Of a stretch of 52,782 nt of DNA, positions 31,297 to 34,034 are shown piece after piece. The stretch lies in the sequence record MT768059.1; one strand, given 5' to 3'. Under the pieces are notes generated by a model. That model was given only the letters and a program-made list of their open reading frames with translations. It did not search any database and was not told the origin of the DNA. How positions within the stretch are numbered: position 1 is the stretch's first letter; the number at the start of each line of letters is the position of its first letter. The translations under genes and the position numbers were made by a program. Origin of the DNA: Escherichia phage vB_EcoM_swi3.

Positions 31297-31839
31297 ATGA
31301 CTAAGCATAAGGTGTTCCGTAACTTTACCATGTACCATCCCGAGGTAACAGAAGAGAACGAGAACATTGTAAATGCTGGTGCAATCTTCCTCAAGGATGA
31401 GGAAGGTCGCGACTGGTACAATCTCGCAAAAGAGTTCGCTGTCAAATACGAAGGCGCAACGTTCTTGCAGGTAGATAAGAACGGAGTTGTAATTGCGGCA
31501 CATACCGACCCAACTATGTTCCATCCTGTGGGTTGCGATATGGTTGTAACGTACGACCCGCCTTTCAACATCTTCGAGACTGTTGGCGAATGGCTGTTCG
31601 ACGGTAAAGAGTTTACGCTTAACGCACCAATGATGAAGGAGATTGCTCGTGAGCGTAAAGAACAAGCTCTGTCCATCGCTTCGACCAAGGTCAGTGTTTT
31701 ACGTGACACAGTTGATAGTGGCAATGCTACCGATGAAGAAAAAGAGCTATTTGCTAAATGGCGTGATTACAGGATTGCTGTCAATCGTCTTGACATTAAC
31801 CTTGGTTCCGCTATGGTTGTTCCACCTATGCCGGAGTAA
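31297..31839 (+). CDS. putative tail fibre assembly chaperone
   Basis: 180 aa; paralog of next gene. Confidence 0.45.
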   Translation: MTKHKVFRNFTMYHPEVTEENENIVNAGAIFLKDEEGRDWYNLAKEFAVKYEGATFLQVDKNGVVIAAHTDPTMFHPVGCDMVVTYDPPFNIFETVGEWLFDGKEFTLNAPMMKEIARERKEQALSIASTKVSVLRDTVDSGNATDEEKELFAKWRDYRIAVNRLDINLGSAMVVPPMPE

Positions 31840-31842
31840 ACC

Positions 31843-32346
31843 ATGCAACTGTCATTTTTCAACTTTACAGAATACAACCCACAAAGGACGGCGGAGACAC
31901 TTCCGCTGATTAAGCAAGGCGTTGTATTCATCAAGGATAACAATGGTAATGACTGGCGCAAGCTGGCTAAAGAGCTGGCTAAGAATAAAGAGCTGGTTCA
32001 TTACATTGTTGTGGATAAGTACAATGCTGTTGCCGCGTATGCTAACGATCCTACGCTACTGTTTCCTGTTAATTGCGATTTGCATATTGTTGAGTCTGTC
32101 CCTGTTGCTAAGTTTGCGGATTGCTATTACGAATGGTCGTACGTTAATGGCAAGTTTGTTAAGCACTCTGAACTGCAGAAGGTGATTGCAGAAGAACGCC
32201 TGCAGGAAGAACAGGCTTGGGTTGAAGGACAACTCGACACTGAAGAAGATGAGGAACGTATTATCGCTCTCCATAAATTCCGTGCCGATTTGTTGCTGCT
32301 TGTTATGTCAGATGCGCCGCATATCGACTGGCCTGTACGACCGTAA
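31843..32346 (+). CDS. putative tail fibre assembly chaperone (paralog)
   Basis: 167 aa; shares FxKDxxGxDWxxLAKExA ... VDKxxxV(I/A)A ... DPTxxFPVxCD with 31297..31839. Confidence 0.45.
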   Translation: MQLSFFNFTEYNPQRTAETLPLIKQGVVFIKDNNGNDWRKLAKELAKNKELVHYIVVDKYNAVAAYANDPTLLFPVNCDLHIVESVPVAKFADCYYEWSYVNGKFVKHSELQKVIAEERLQEEQAWVEGQLDTEEDEERIIALHKFRADLLLLVMSDAPHIDWPVRP

Positions 32347-32353
32347 CTAATTG

Positions 32354-32390
32354 CTACCAGCAAGCTTGTGCAGTTGCTGGTAGTGTTTCT
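32354..32390 (+). terminator. rho-independent terminator
   Basis: CTACCAGCAA-(10 nt)-TTGCTGGTAG then T-rich tract. Confidence 0.6.
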
Positions 32391-32414
32391 TTTACGCTTG
32401 AGTCGTGCTATAAT
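32386..32414 (+). promoter_or_regulatory. sigma70-like promoter (TTTCTT-N17-TATAATcc) for lysis cassette
   Basis: Read directly. Confidence 0.45.
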
Positions 32415-32448
32415 CCACTCTGGGTATACAATAAACCGGAGATATGGG

Positions 32449-32709
32449 ATGTTTGACTACAACGACAAGTCTTCCCTTATTGGCCAGTTTGTGGCTTGGG
32501 TAACAATAACAGTAAGTACTTTATCACTAAGTGATTGGGGTACTCTTATCGGTATACTCAGTTCCTTGGTGATGCTGATTGTTGTTACGTATAACCAAAC
32601 ACGGCGAACCAAAATTATGTCGGATTATTACAATCGTAAGAAGCCGATAGAGGATGAAGTCGCATCGAAAGAAGAGGTGTTGCGTGAGTCTGAAATCAGC
32701 AGCGACTAA
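32449..32709 (+). CDS. putative holin
   Basis: ~87 aa from ATG at 32449 with two hydrophobic segments and charged C-terminus; directly upstream of endolysin. Confidence 0.5.
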   Translation: MFDYNDKSSLIGQFVAWVTITVSTLSLSDWGTLIGILSSLVMLIVVTYNQTRRTKIMSDYYNRKKPIEDEVASKEEVLRESEISSD

Positions 32710-32722
32710 AGGAGGTTGTAGC

Positions 32723-33229
32723 GTGCTCGCTATCATCGGGCTTGTATTGTCGATGACAAGTACGCATGTACGTACTAATAAAGAAGGTCTTGAAATAATC
32801 GGTAATGCAGAAGGTTGTATGCGCAACCCGTATGTATGCCCTACTGGTTATTTAACAGTTGGCATTGGTAGCCGCATCTACAGCGATGAGCCCGCTGTAC
32901 GGCGCGAAGGCCTGACAGACCAGGAGATTGCTGACCGCTGGGTCAAGAATATTCAAGAGGCCGAAAAATGTGTTAATGACTGGTTCCACGGTAAAGATAT
33001 GAACACGAACCAGTTCAGCGCCATGACCTCTATGGTATTTAACCATGGTTGCACTAGACTCCGTAAGAACAAGGATGGTTCACCTACCAAAATATATACT
33101 GCTGCTCGTAAACAAAACTGGACTGAAATGTGTAACCGCATAACGGACTGGGATATGGGTGGTAAGTACAGGGGCTTGACAATACGTAAGCAAAAGGAAA
33201 AAGCGCTATGTCTAAAACCGGTGCAATAA
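32723..33229 (+). CDS. endolysin, T4-lysozyme-like (GH24) with hydrophobic N-terminus
   Basis: GTG start after AGGAGG; KEGLE ... YLTVGIG block resembling T4 lysozyme E11/T26 region with a Cys-containing insertion; N-terminal LAIIGLVLSMTS. Confidence 0.7.
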   Translation: MLAIIGLVLSMTSTHVRTNKEGLEIIGNAEGCMRNPYVCPTGYLTVGIGSRIYSDEPAVRREGLTDQEIADRWVKNIQEAEKCVNDWFHGKDMNTNQFSAMTSMVFNHGCTRLRKNKDGSPTKIYTAARKQNWTEMCNRITDWDMGGKYRGLTIRKQKEKALCLKPVQ

Positions 33230-33537
33230 TTGCAGTTATTCTCGGCCTCGCCATTGTGTTCCTGTCTTTGTGGGTACGTGAGCTGAAAGGAGATATTACC
33301 GACCGCGACGGTATAATCAAACAGCTTAACAAGACTAATGGCGAGTTGTCTGCTGCTAATCAAACGCTGATTAATTCTGTAAAGGATGAACGTGAGGCCT
33401 CAGCCAAACGCGCCAGTAAGATAACTGAACTTGAACAACAACTGCGTGATAAGAAGGGTAAATATGACGAAGCGACAAAATATGATTCGTGCGCTAATAC
33501 CGTTGCTCCTTCTGCCGTTCTTGAACTCATGCGCTGA
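33208..33537 (+). CDS. putative i-spanin
   Basis: 109 aa; N-terminal TM segment (AIIAVILGLAIVFLSLWV) then coiled-coil. Confidence 0.5.
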   Translation: MSKTGAIIAVILGLAIVFLSLWVRELKGDITDRDGIIKQLNKTNGELSAANQTLINSVKDEREASAKRASKITELEQQLRDKKGKYDEATKYDSCANTVAPSAVLELMR

Positions 33538-33739
33538 TAAACCTGAAGTTGTTTATGTTGACAGGGTAGTCAAGGTTTATCCGCCTGGTGCGTACCTGGT
33601 TAAATGCCATAAACCTGAATTAACAGGTAACACCTGGAAGGCAATAGGTCAGTTAGCTATTGAACGTGGAACAGCTCTTGATGATTGTGCAGACAAGATG
33701 GACAGCATAATTAACTGGAGTAACAAAGGGGCCGAGTGA
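33464..33739 (+). CDS. putative o-spanin (lipoprotein), overlapping i-spanin
   Basis: Signal-like MTKRQNMIRALIPLLLLPFLNSC with lipobox-like LNSC; starts in +1 frame inside i-spanin. Confidence 0.45.
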   Translation: MTKRQNMIRALIPLLLLPFLNSCADKPEVVYVDRVVKVYPPGAYLVKCHKPELTGNTWKAIGQLAIERGTALDDCADKMDSIINWSNKGAE

Positions 33740-33754
33740 TGGCCCCTTTATTTG
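33728..33754. terminator. rho-independent terminator between convergent blocks
   Basis: GGGGCC-gagtgat-GGCCCC then TTTATTT. Confidence 0.6.
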
Positions 33755-33755
33755 A

Positions 33756-34034
33756 TTAAGCCTGCAGGAAGCCTGGGAACATATCAGCGCGTAAAGCAGC
33801 GCCCTTCAGTAACCAGATTTGGTCTTTAGCCTGTGCAAGCGCATTGTCCTGAGCTACTTGTTTGCCGATGTCTGCATTGAACTCTGCAGGGTCAACACAA
33901 CCAGAAGTACCTACACCTAACTGGAAGCCATCCAGCGTTGCCACACATACAGTTACAGTTGTATTCGGTACCTGCCAGAAATGATACTCCAGTTTATCAA
34001 CAAGAGCATTAACTTCTTTAAAATCTACTTTCAT
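33756..34034 (-). CDS. hypothetical protein
   Basis: 92-aa ORF. Confidence 0.4.
   Translation of the reverse strand: MKVDFKEVNALVDKLEYHFWQVPNTTVTVCVATLDGFQLGVGTSGCVDPAEFNADIGKQVAQDNALAQAKDQIWLLKGAALRADMFPGFLQA

Follow-up and report, generated by a model that had tools for sequence, protein, structure and literature searches.

Upstream start codon of a predicted P1-type SAR endolysin gene in the lysis region of a Rosemountvirus-like phage

Organization of the lysis region

The window that was analyzed comprises 52,782 nucleotides of Escherichia phage vB_EcoM_swi3 (MT768059.1). Four open reading frames are present on the plus strand at positions 32449 to 33739, and all of them match lysis families, in accordance with the compact lysis cassette that had been described for this span in an earlier note made from the sequence. 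The genes, their motifs, and the flanking elements are the following:

32353..32393, plus strand: terminator-like hairpin with T-tract, closing the upstream tail-fibre-assembly genes (fold)
32406..32414, plus strand: extended -10 element TGcTATAAT resembling a promoter, some 35 nt ahead of the holin gene
32449..33739, plus strand: lysis unit of the four ORFs for holin, endolysin, i-spanin, and o-spanin
32449..32709, plus strand: holin, 86 aa, class II (phrog_1350 match, hydropathy, gene position)
32684..33229, plus strand: endolysin, 181 aa, predicted class I (P1 Lyz-type) SAR muramidase (corrected GTG start, match to 1XJT)
32711..32764, plus strand: predicted SAR domain, residues 10-27, GGCSVLAIIGLVLSMTST, following K4 and K9 (hydropathy, P1 Lyz alignment)
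32717..32719, plus strand: codon of Cys12, the predicted activating SAR thiol, upstream of the start in the earlier note and in RefSeq
32723..32725, plus strand: internal GTG (Val14), called as the start in the earlier note and in several GenBank/RefSeq records
32810..32857, plus strand: catalytic/regulatory loop E43-G-C45-MRNPYV-C52-PTGYL-T58 (conservation, ungapped GH24 alignment)
33208..33537, plus strand: i-spanin, 109 aa (DUF2570, phrog_214, hydropathy)
33464..33739, plus strand: o-spanin precursor, 91 aa, +1 frame (PF23793 LysC, phrog_456)
33521..33532, plus strand: lipobox L-N-S-C with Cys23 as the predicted lipidation site (conserved in 12 relatives)
33725..33749, plus strand: intrinsic-terminator-like hairpin over the o-spanin stop codon (stem, fold, BP63 annotation)

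The four genes overlap serially, by 26 nt (holin/endolysin), 22 nt (endolysin/i-spanin), and 74 nt (i-spanin/o-spanin), and the unit is flanked by terminator-like hairpins on both sides. Over this span, 45 Rosemountvirus genomes share an identity of 95% or more with the window, and the records of BP63, IntR, SPLA11, and LPSEYT list the genes in the order holin-endolysin-spanin-spanin. Taken together, it is very probable that the four genes represent the late operon for lysis in a BP63-like Rosemountvirus myophage, encoding a holin, a P1-type SAR endolysin, and spanins.

The upstream hairpin folds at -18.9 kcal/mol (z -2.55), and the alignment revealed that a divergent clade has a hairpin of another sequence, also followed by a T-run, at the equivalent place; a consensus scan missed the hairpin of the window. 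At the extended -10 element, 11 related loci have the identical sequence TATAATCC despite diverging flanks, which is consistent with a putative promoter function. A good -35 hexamer is missing, and a scan of the region with the sigma-70 consensus did not call a plus-strand promoter. The downstream hairpin has a 10-bp stem with six G-C pairs and a T-rich tail (-17.5 kcal/mol, z -2.42). As the gene that follows is convergent, this hairpin probably acts in both directions, and the BP63 record lists its counterpart as a terminator for either strand.

The holin gene

The first gene of the unit encodes a protein that matches the phrog_1350 holin family with an E-value of 2e-15. Hydropathy analysis placed the two transmembrane domains (TMDs) approximately at residues 10-27 and 30-48, ahead of a charged C-terminal tail. 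The small size, the two TMDs, the charged tail, and the location of the gene directly upstream of the endolysin gene represent the layout of holin superfamily II. For the orthologue of phage S144 an N-in/C-in topology with two TMDs was predicted by its authors with TMHMM and Phobius. The Shine-Dalgarno sequence GGAG of the holin gene is conserved in the related loci.

A direct comparison of the holin with Pfam and NCBIfam yielded sub-threshold matches only, and no threshold of a Pfam holin family was reached; PF16080 gave an E-value of 0.13 with the holin of the window and PF04971 one of 0.019 with the S1 orthologue, both below the gathering threshold. A word-indexed protein search retrieved only close relatives. 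When a profile of eight orthologues was compared exhaustively with 1.84 billion proteins, the proteins P0103 (E 1.2e-5) and P0104 (E 3.8e-4) were retrieved, both of which pass PF16080, and P0104 passes PF04971 as well. This exhaustive profile search is the sole bridge between the holin and the two Pfam families. The similarity to the pinholin S21 is weak, with 35% identity over 54 aa around TMD2 (pairwise E 7e-4), and hhalign assigned a probability of 3.7% to the comparison of a four-sequence holin profile with S21.

The start codon of the endolysin gene

The endolysin gene starts with GTG 32684, and not with GTG 32723, the start codon chosen in the earlier note. All 15 related loci have GTG or ATG at position 32684, and GTG 32684 is preceded by the sequence GAGG at a distance of 6 nt. 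Within the overlap with the holin gene, three states were found at site 32692, all of which are synonymous Leu codons for the endolysin, while the holin residue changes between E, K, and Q. The 13 codons between 32684 and 32723 are conserved as protein and include the codon of the invariant Cys12. At position 32723 the relatives have GTG, ATG, GTA, or GTT, and in 7/15 loci the codon is GTA or GTT (GTA in S1 and ZCSE2, GTT in KM, KE25, and L011, among others); IntR has ATG. The hydropathy fits only the long form of the endolysin. A product starting at 32723 would have 14 uncharged N-terminal residues and would be devoid of a basic N-terminus and of the SAR-domain cysteine, while the corrected N-terminus MSLKSAATKGGCSVLAIIGLVLSMTST regains two lysines, a weakly hydrophobic segment of 18 residues, and Cys12. 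The stretch SLKSAATKGGCS would distinguish the product of GTG 32684 from the form starting at 32723. On the basis of the conservation of 32684, the loss of the internal start codon in seven relatives, and the invariance of Cys12, GTG 32723 was rejected as the main start. ATG 32654, which would yield the longest ORF, was rejected because it is not conserved; the frame has an in-frame stop in S1 and ZCSE2, KM and SE4 have no ATG at this site, and in the window the sequence AGAGG directly abuts the ATG.

The position of the start has consequences for the interpretation of the protein. The earlier note had proposed a SAR endolysin that is regulated by disulfide isomerization, yet its start codon removes the very cysteine that such a regulation requires. 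A form starting at 32723 would thus fail the note's own model, and the support for a SAR endolysin depends on the corrected start.

Some initiation at GTG 32723 may nevertheless occur, given the strong Shine-Dalgarno sequence AAGGAGG. It is conceivable, but improbable, that the Rosemountvirus clade uses both starts, and that translation from 32723 yields a truncated cytoplasmic isoform, for example as a holin-released back-up or modulator, alongside the SAR endolysin made from 32684. Each of the two sites has, in this clade, a start-capable codon that follows an SD-like sequence at a suitable spacing, and secondary translation products are known in other endolysins, e.g., CTP1L (PMC4777826). 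However, seven of the 15 related loci have lost the internal start codon and retained the same cassette, and therefore a short isoform, if made at all, would not be conserved. We know of no described SAR endolysin with such a dual start.

An exclusive use of GTG 32723, the start given in the records of BP63 (RefSeq), IntR, and SPLA11 and in the earlier note, is very unlikely; it would result in a 168-aa endolysin of the canonical type, cytoplasmic and holin-dependent. Gene callers have picked this start in several records, the AAGGAGG is a near-perfect Shine-Dalgarno sequence 6 nt upstream of the GTG, and IntR even has an ATG at this place. However, the AAGGAGG is explained by the codons for Lys-Gly-Gly within the SAR domain, and the GTA and GTT codons of S1, ZCSE2, KM, KE25, and L011, the conserved 13 codons upstream, and the uncharged N-terminus without basic residues all argue against the short form. 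In the periplasm, moreover, it would be devoid of a thiol for the uncaging of Cys52.

Similarity of the endolysin to P1 Lyz

The protein contains a GH24 (T4-lysozyme-type) muramidase domain and matches Phage_lysozyme (PF00959, 71.9 bits at a cutoff of 22.3, E 7.7e-20). The best match among solved structures is Lyz of phage P1 (PDB 1XJT), with an E-value of 1.6e-42 and 175 residues aligned at about 47% identity. An AlphaFold model (pLDDT 88.4) was compared with known structures using Foldseek, and the best superposition was obtained with 1XJT, titled "active form of P1 Lyz" (TM 0.81, 175 columns), while the TM score with the SAR-less inactive form 1XJU was 0.57. The match to HP1 Lys starts at residue 35 of the 191-aa ORF that was used as query, and the N-terminus of the endolysin has no similarity to HP1 Lys.

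The predicted SAR segment consists of 18 uncharged residues with a mean Kyte-Doolittle value of 1.67 and a content of 50% Gly/Ala/Ser/Thr, as judged by hydropathy. It aligns with the SAR domain of P1 Lyz, and the AlphaFold model predicts a helix at residues 14-24 (block pLDDT 90 for residues 11-20). Homologues with about 40% identity begin with M-x-K/R...GACSV(L/I/V)AV(I/V)G. Cys12 corresponds in the alignment to the cysteine in the P1 Lyz SAR domain, and it is present without exception in 63 homologues with identities of 33-88%, P1 Lyz among them; in IMG/VR it was found in 79 of 80 loci, i.e., in every locus with a recovered N-terminus. E43, C45, C52, C150, and C176 are also invariant in the 63 homologues, and T58, C96, and C123 are present in at least 90% of them. 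In an alignment of six sequences including P1 Lyz, nine positions are identical, namely the seven cysteines that P1 Lyz contains and, in addition, E43 and T58.

The strings LAIIGLVLSMTS, GCMRNPYVCP, and YLTVGIG, which had been quoted in the earlier note, are indeed present in the sequence. The view that GCMRNPYVCP is an insertion had to be abandoned, as alignments to Asp-containing GH24 enzymes, among them the lysozyme 6ET6, are ungapped, and the spacing is the canonical E-8-(D/C)-5-T. As in P1 Lyz, Cys45 is located at position E+2 and Cys52 at the position of the catalytic Asp, so that the protein has the cysteine pair expected for caging together with an E-8-C-5-T triad. The distance from Cys12 to the V-R-T-N motif is 17 residues versus 15 in P1 Lyz, and therefore the geometry is not identical in the two proteins.

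Read from GTG 32684, the protein has all features by which a class I SAR endolysin is recognized at the sequence level. Because it is a close homologue of P1 Lyz, its proposed identity as a SAR enzyme of the disulfide-isomerization type is supported, with the evidence from homology comprising the match to 1XJT, the superposition of the AlphaFold model, and the conservation of the P1 Lyz cysteines. Secretion of the endolysin by Sec with cleavage of a signal peptide, as in Lys44 of phage fOg44, would be compatible with the n-region and h-region layout of the N-terminus and with small residues (S, T) after the hydrophobic core, but it is hardly credible as an alternative to a tethered SAR enzyme, since cleavage would discard the invariant cysteine within the segment, an A-x-A-type cleavage motif is missing, the segment aligns with a P1 Lyz SAR domain that is present in the 1XJT chain (with a model match over 175 columns), and the SAR helix is confidently modeled.

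The spanin genes

The third gene encodes a protein with an N-terminal TMD at residues 5-23 (Kyte-Doolittle value 2.71), a predicted periplasmic helical domain, and one periplasmic cysteine (C95), which is the architecture of an i-spanin. It matches PF10828 (DUF2570) with 30.7 bits (cutoff 26.6) and the Rz-like spanin family phrog_214 with an E-value of 4.9e-14, and a weak match to LysB (TIGR03495) was also found. The product of the fourth gene matches PF23793 (LysC; 71.2 bits, E 6.6e-20) and phrog_456 (2.5e-21). Its N-terminus, MTKRQNMIRALIPLLLLPFLNSC, comprises a predicted signal peptide, a lipobox, and the predicted lipidated cysteine, as expected for an o-spanin. The lipobox context (L/M/S)(N/T/A)SC is kept in the 12 relatives, and the Asn at position -2 is unusual. 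The ATG at the MT(K/Q/R) position is common to most relatives; the KM/KE25/SOI901 clade has a differently spaced Met. The NCBIfam equivalog thresholds for P2 LysB and LysC were not reached by the two spanins of the window.

The coordinates confirm that the o-spanin gene is in the +1 frame relative to the i-spanin gene and begins within it, as had been noted before. However, the two genes had also been called nested, and this does not hold: they are overlapped rather than embedded, because the o-spanin stop (33739) lies 202 nt beyond the i-spanin stop (33537). This excludes a nested arrangement and is the P2 LysB/LysC type of organization. All in all, the earlier reading of a holin, a SAR endolysin regulated by disulfide isomerization, and a two-component spanin whose o-spanin is read in the +1 frame is supported on the condition that the start codon is corrected; the ORFs, the quoted strings, and the o-spanin frame were described accurately, while the endolysin start, the inserted loop, and the nested spanins were not.

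Discussion

By analogy with the biology of P1 Lyz, S21, and Rz/Rz1, the following course of lysis can be proposed, with the residue numbering of the P1 mechanism taken from PDB titles and secondary summaries. The holin with its two TMDs would build up in the inner membrane, trigger at a programmed time, and collapse the proton-motive force; the timing and size of its lesion are likewise judged by analogy. The endolysin translated from GTG 32684 would be exported by Sec, with the SAR domain acting as an uncleaved signal anchor, and the tethered periplasmic enzyme would be inactive because a disulfide to Cys45 blocks the catalytic Cys52. Upon depolarization the SAR domain would leave the bilayer, and Cys12 could then attack the Cys45-Cys52 bond, so that a Cys12-Cys45 disulfide would be formed and Cys52 would be freed. 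The endolysin would refold to an active GH24 muramidase with the triad E43/C52/T58, and after degradation of the murein the i-spanin and the lipoprotein o-spanin would disrupt the outer membrane.

The endolysin shares with P1 Lyz the GH24 fold, an N-terminal SAR domain with one cysteine, the E-G-C-x6-C-x5-T loop, and the seven cysteines. The two differ in the loop after the SAR helix, which is MTSTH in the window and GNGN in P1, and in gene context, as the endolysin gene of the window belongs to a compact holin-endolysin-spanin cassette and overlaps the holin gene, whereas P1 lyz is unlinked from lydA/lydB. The order of holin, SAR endolysin, and spanins and a two-TMD class II holin are also found in phage 21. 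Its R21 is, however, a class II SAR endolysin with an E-D-T triad, which is devoid of a SAR cysteine and is regulated by refolding only (bioRxiv 10.64898/2026.09.09.750462), and its spanins are embedded and not overlapped. The formation of small pinholes of about 2 nm, which depolarize the membrane but let no soluble endolysin pass, is the trait of pinholins such as S21 and a candidate trait of the holin of the window. A likeness to P2 LysB/LysC extends beyond gene layout, with an o-spanin that starts in the +1 frame inside the i-spanin and extends past it, to the families PF23793 (LysC) and DUF2570. Phage HP1 is linked via the remote relatives of the holin, which belong to the HP1 holin family PF16080.

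The cassette has little biological novelty, as it is a textbook set of holin, SAR endolysin, and spanins, with a mechanism that is known from phage P1. The Loughboroughvirus phages S144 and S1 and the Rosemountvirus phage LPSEYT have the same four genes with a 181-aa endolysin annotated from the upstream GTG. The curated S144 record contains this GTG, the ribosome-binding site, and a match to the P1 SAR endolysin, the product is named "SAR-endolysin" in the S1 record, and the endolysin of LPSEYT is annotated with 181 aa; the link to SAR endolysins is thus already known from the annotations of S144 and S1. A literature search for Rosemountvirus together with SAR endolysin retrieved no papers, and a search for Cys13/Cys44/Cys51 yielded nothing relevant. 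The only new point is the endolysin start, which lies 39 bases upstream of that in the earlier note and in several database records.

The practical value is a correction of annotations. IntR, the closest record in genome coordinates, the RefSeq reference BP63, and SPLA11 have the shortened endolysin of 168 aa, and that of ZCSE2 (RefSeq) is shorter still, so that all four annotated proteins lack a part of the SAR domain and the essential cysteine. Rosemountvirus and Loughboroughvirus phages are under development for the biocontrol of Salmonella and E. coli, and if the "lysozyme" of 168 aa in these annotations were cloned for use as an enzybiotic, the form expressed is predicted to remain caged, or at least to be mis-regulated. 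The o-spanin is also affected, and in the records of IntR, BP63, S1, and ZCSE2 it is shortened or omitted, with several records shortening or omitting its signal peptide.

The lysis cassette and its annotation

The lysis cassette at 32449-33739 is already known. A publication on phage S144 (PMC7432712) described it as made up of a holin of type II, an endolysin, an i-spanin and an o-spanin, the last of these in the +1 frame, and in the record and paper of phage S1 the endolysin gene was called SAR-endolysin (signal-anchor-release). The residual value of the present analysis lies in annotation correction, and the public records disagree on the endolysin start. The four lysis ORFs of the earlier note proved to be real: all are on the + strand, and each matches a lysis family. 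All peptide strings that it had quoted were found in the sequence. The label "compact" was also apt: the overlaps between neighbouring genes are 26, 22 and 74 nt.

Features of the lysis cassette
32353-32393: hairpin with T-tract, -18.9 kcal/mol, z -2.55
32406-32416: invariant TGnTATAATCC, after the 32353-32393 hairpin
32449-32709, + strand: holin, 86 aa; phrog_1350, E 2e-15
32654-33229, + strand: endolysin, longest ORF, 191 aa; PF00959, E 7.7e-20
33208-33537, + strand: i-spanin, 109 aa; DUF2570, phrog_214
end at 33739, + strand: o-spanin in the +1 frame, 91 aa; PF23793 LysC, 71.2 bits
33725-33749: 10-bp G+C-rich hairpin, overlapping the o-spanin stop

A conserved GGAG precedes the holin ATG. 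The two hairpins are the predicted boundaries of the transcription unit, and in the BP63 record the one at 33725-33749 is marked as a terminator for both strands. Across 1.5 kb around the cassette, 45 phage genomes show identities of at least 95%; almost all of them belong to Salmonella/Escherichia phages of the genus Rosemountvirus (BP63-like), and Loughboroughvirus phages exhibit 80-90% identity in this region.

The predicted start of the endolysin

The endolysin had been proposed to start at GTG 32723. This was not upheld, and five lines of evidence place the predicted start at GTG 32684 instead. The ORF stays open upstream of GTG 32723, with the translation ...V-S-L-K-S-A-A-T-K-G-G-C-S-V(32723)-L-A-I-I-G.... 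The codon at 32684 is GTG or ATG in 15 of 15 related loci from three clades, and it is ATG in the divergent clade of KM, KE25, SOI901 and the related locus L011. At 32723 the relatives have GTG, ATG (IntR), GTA (S1, ZCSE2) or GTT (KM, KE25, L011), and because GTA and GTT occur there, this position cannot be the start of the family. ATG 32654 was rejected as well; it is not conserved either, and S1 has a stop codon at that position.

The 26-nt overlap of the holin and endolysin genes, (A/G)TGAGTCTNAAATCANCAGCGACTAA, is almost invariant, even in loci where the adjacent upstream part of the holin tail is unalignable. Site 32692 within the overlap has three states, which are all synonymous (Leu) in the endolysin frame, whereas in the holin frame they specify Glu, Lys or Gln; therefore, the endolysin frame is under purifying selection there. 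Homologues from IMG/VR with about 40% identity begin with M-x-(K/R)...G-A-C-S-V-(L/I/V)-A-V-(I/V)-G, the counterpart of K-G-G-C-S-V-L-A-I-I-G in the window, and Cys12 (numbered from GTG 32684) is invariant in an alignment of 63 homologues with 33-88% identity. GTG 32684 has a GAGG 6 nt upstream. The AAGGAGG before 32723, which is attractive to gene callers, simply encodes Lys-Gly-Gly in the SAR domain. A protein starting at 32723 would begin with 14 uncharged residues, with no basic N-terminus and no SAR-domain cysteine. That start (168 aa) is annotated in BP63 RefSeq, IntR and SPLA11, an even more downstream start in ZCSE2 RefSeq, and the upstream start in LPSEYT, S1, S144, SOI901, KE25 and KM. 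That the Rosemountvirus clade also uses a second, internal start has a low probability.

The last eight holin codons, ES(E/K/Q)I(S/N)SD* (32684-32709), are kept even in the related loci L004, L005, L087 and L088, where the rest of the holin C-terminal tail is unrelated to that of the window and six residues shorter. The simplest explanation is that the endolysin N-terminus and its initiation region, which overlap these codons, constrain them. Translational coupling is possible.

The endolysin resembles P1 Lyz

The best match among solved structures was the SAR endolysin Lyz of phage P1 (1XJT, E 1.6e-42), and the alignment opens within the N-terminal hydrophobic segment of the endolysin. An AlphaFold model based on the 63-sequence alignment (mean pLDDT 88.4) has a confident helix at residues 14-24 and superposes best on the "active form of P1 phage endolysin Lyz" (TM 0.81, 175 columns), while the fit to the SAR-less "secreted inactive form" 1XJU was poorer (TM 0.57). 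The key residues C12, E43, C45, C52 and T58 are aligned with their P1 Lyz equivalents, reportedly C13, E42, C44, C51 and T57 in the work of Xu et al. from 2005. Four more cysteines (C96, C123, C150, C176) likewise line up with P1 Lyz. Thus the suggested likeness to SAR endolysins regulated by disulfide isomerisation is supported at the sequence level by the homology and the aligned cysteines.

At the N-terminus, K4 and K9 are followed by 18 uncharged residues, GGCSVLAIIGLVLSMTST, with a mean Kyte-Doolittle value of 1.67, half of which are Gly, Ala, Ser or Thr. The i-spanin TMD is far more hydrophobic (2.7 in the best 19-residue window). Such a weakly hydrophobic, Gly/Ala/Ser/Thr-rich segment after basic residues is the signature expected of a SAR domain.

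GCMRNPYVCP had been regarded as inserted, which was wrong, as E43-T58 aligns ungapped with Asp-containing GH24 enzymes such as 6ET6. The triad spacing is the canonical E-8-(D/C)-5-T, with Cys52 at the catalytic Asp position and Cys45 at E+2, which is how class I SAR endolysins are arranged. In contrast, class II SAR endolysins (R21) have an E-D-T triad and lack a SAR cysteine (bioRxiv 10.64898/2026.09.09.750462), whereas the window endolysin has Cys52 and Cys12.

Holin and spanins

The holin contains two hydrophobic segments, residues 10-27 (KD 1.62, Ser/Thr-rich) and 30-48 (KD about 2.0), followed by a charged tail. In the second, the small residues G31, G35 and S39 are four apart and invariant among eight orthologues. 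A direct search against the Pfam holin families reached no threshold. An exhaustive search of 1.84 billion proteins with a profile of eight orthologues matched P0103 (E 1.2e-5) and P0104 (E 3.8e-4), both bona fide members of PF16080 (HP1 holin), the latter passing PF04971 (phage 21 holin S) as well. A pairwise BLASTP aligned 54 aa with S21 at 35% identity (E 7e-4, single comparison), but hhalign was weak (3.7%). We therefore place the protein in superfamily II as a putative divergent class II holin. Either holin type, pinholin or not, would depolarise the membrane, and therefore both would trigger a SAR endolysin; P1 Lyz functions with both (PMC9025707; PMC6116005).

In the i-spanin, a strong N-terminal TMD spans residues 5-23, and there is a single conserved cysteine in the periplasmic part (C95). 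The o-spanin indeed begins inside the i-spanin in the +1 frame, most likely at ATG 33464, 74 nt before the i-spanin stop. It extends 202 nt beyond that stop, so that "nested" was incorrect: the spanins are overlapped, like P2 LysB/LysC, and not embedded, as in lambda Rz/Rz1. Most relatives also have an ATG at this MT(K/Q/R) position. The precursor is MTKRQNMIRALIPLLLLPFLNSC; 12 relatives retain its lipobox cysteine C23 along with two other cysteines (C48, C75). The IntR and BP63 records start the o-spanin at an internal TTG 33521, at the lipobox Leu, and therefore lose the signal peptide; in the S1 and ZCSE2 records it is unannotated.

The prerequisites can be read in the sequence; for the dynamic steps of lysis, P1 Lyz, S21 and Rz/Rz1 are the models from which they are inferred. 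Triggering of the holin would collapse the proton-motive force, and the SAR domain would then leave the membrane. Cys12 would displace Cys52 from the Cys45-Cys52 disulfide, the freed active muramidase would degrade the murein, and lastly the spanins would disrupt the outer membrane.

Neighbourhood and related genomes

At 52,782 bp, Escherichia phage vB_EcoM_IntR (OM313460.1) matches the window in length, and its gene coordinates are the same too. Between 30800 and 35300, 80 of 4,501 positions differ, all by substitution and without indels. Many of the differing sites lie a multiple of three apart, and position 32723 is one of the differences (GTG in the window, ATG in IntR). According to megablast, SD350 and brunost (about 99.3%) are nearer than IntR (97.9%).

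Two tandem tail-fibre-assembly (Tfa/U-like) genes (31297-31839 and 31843-32346, + strand) lie directly upstream of the cassette; the Caudo_TAP match of the second is weak and below threshold (E 0.0042). The KM/KE25/SOI901 clade has one such gene. Between the cassette terminator and a DksA-like zinc-finger gene lies a 92-aa gene (33756-34034, - strand) of the PF13876 family (N4 gp49 / Sf6 gp66, E 9.5e-16). It is a presence/absence polymorphism, since IntR, SPLA11, LPSEYT and KM carry it and BP63 and S1/ZCSE2 do not. Its label in LPSEYT, "ryanodine receptor", looks like a mis-annotation.

A holin 100% identical to that of the window is encoded by "Listeria phage 220426122051" (PP583539.1; host Listeria monocytogenes), the genome of which is Rosemountvirus-sized (53,072 bp). 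The assignment to Listeria as host seems questionable; alternatively, the sample may be contaminated.
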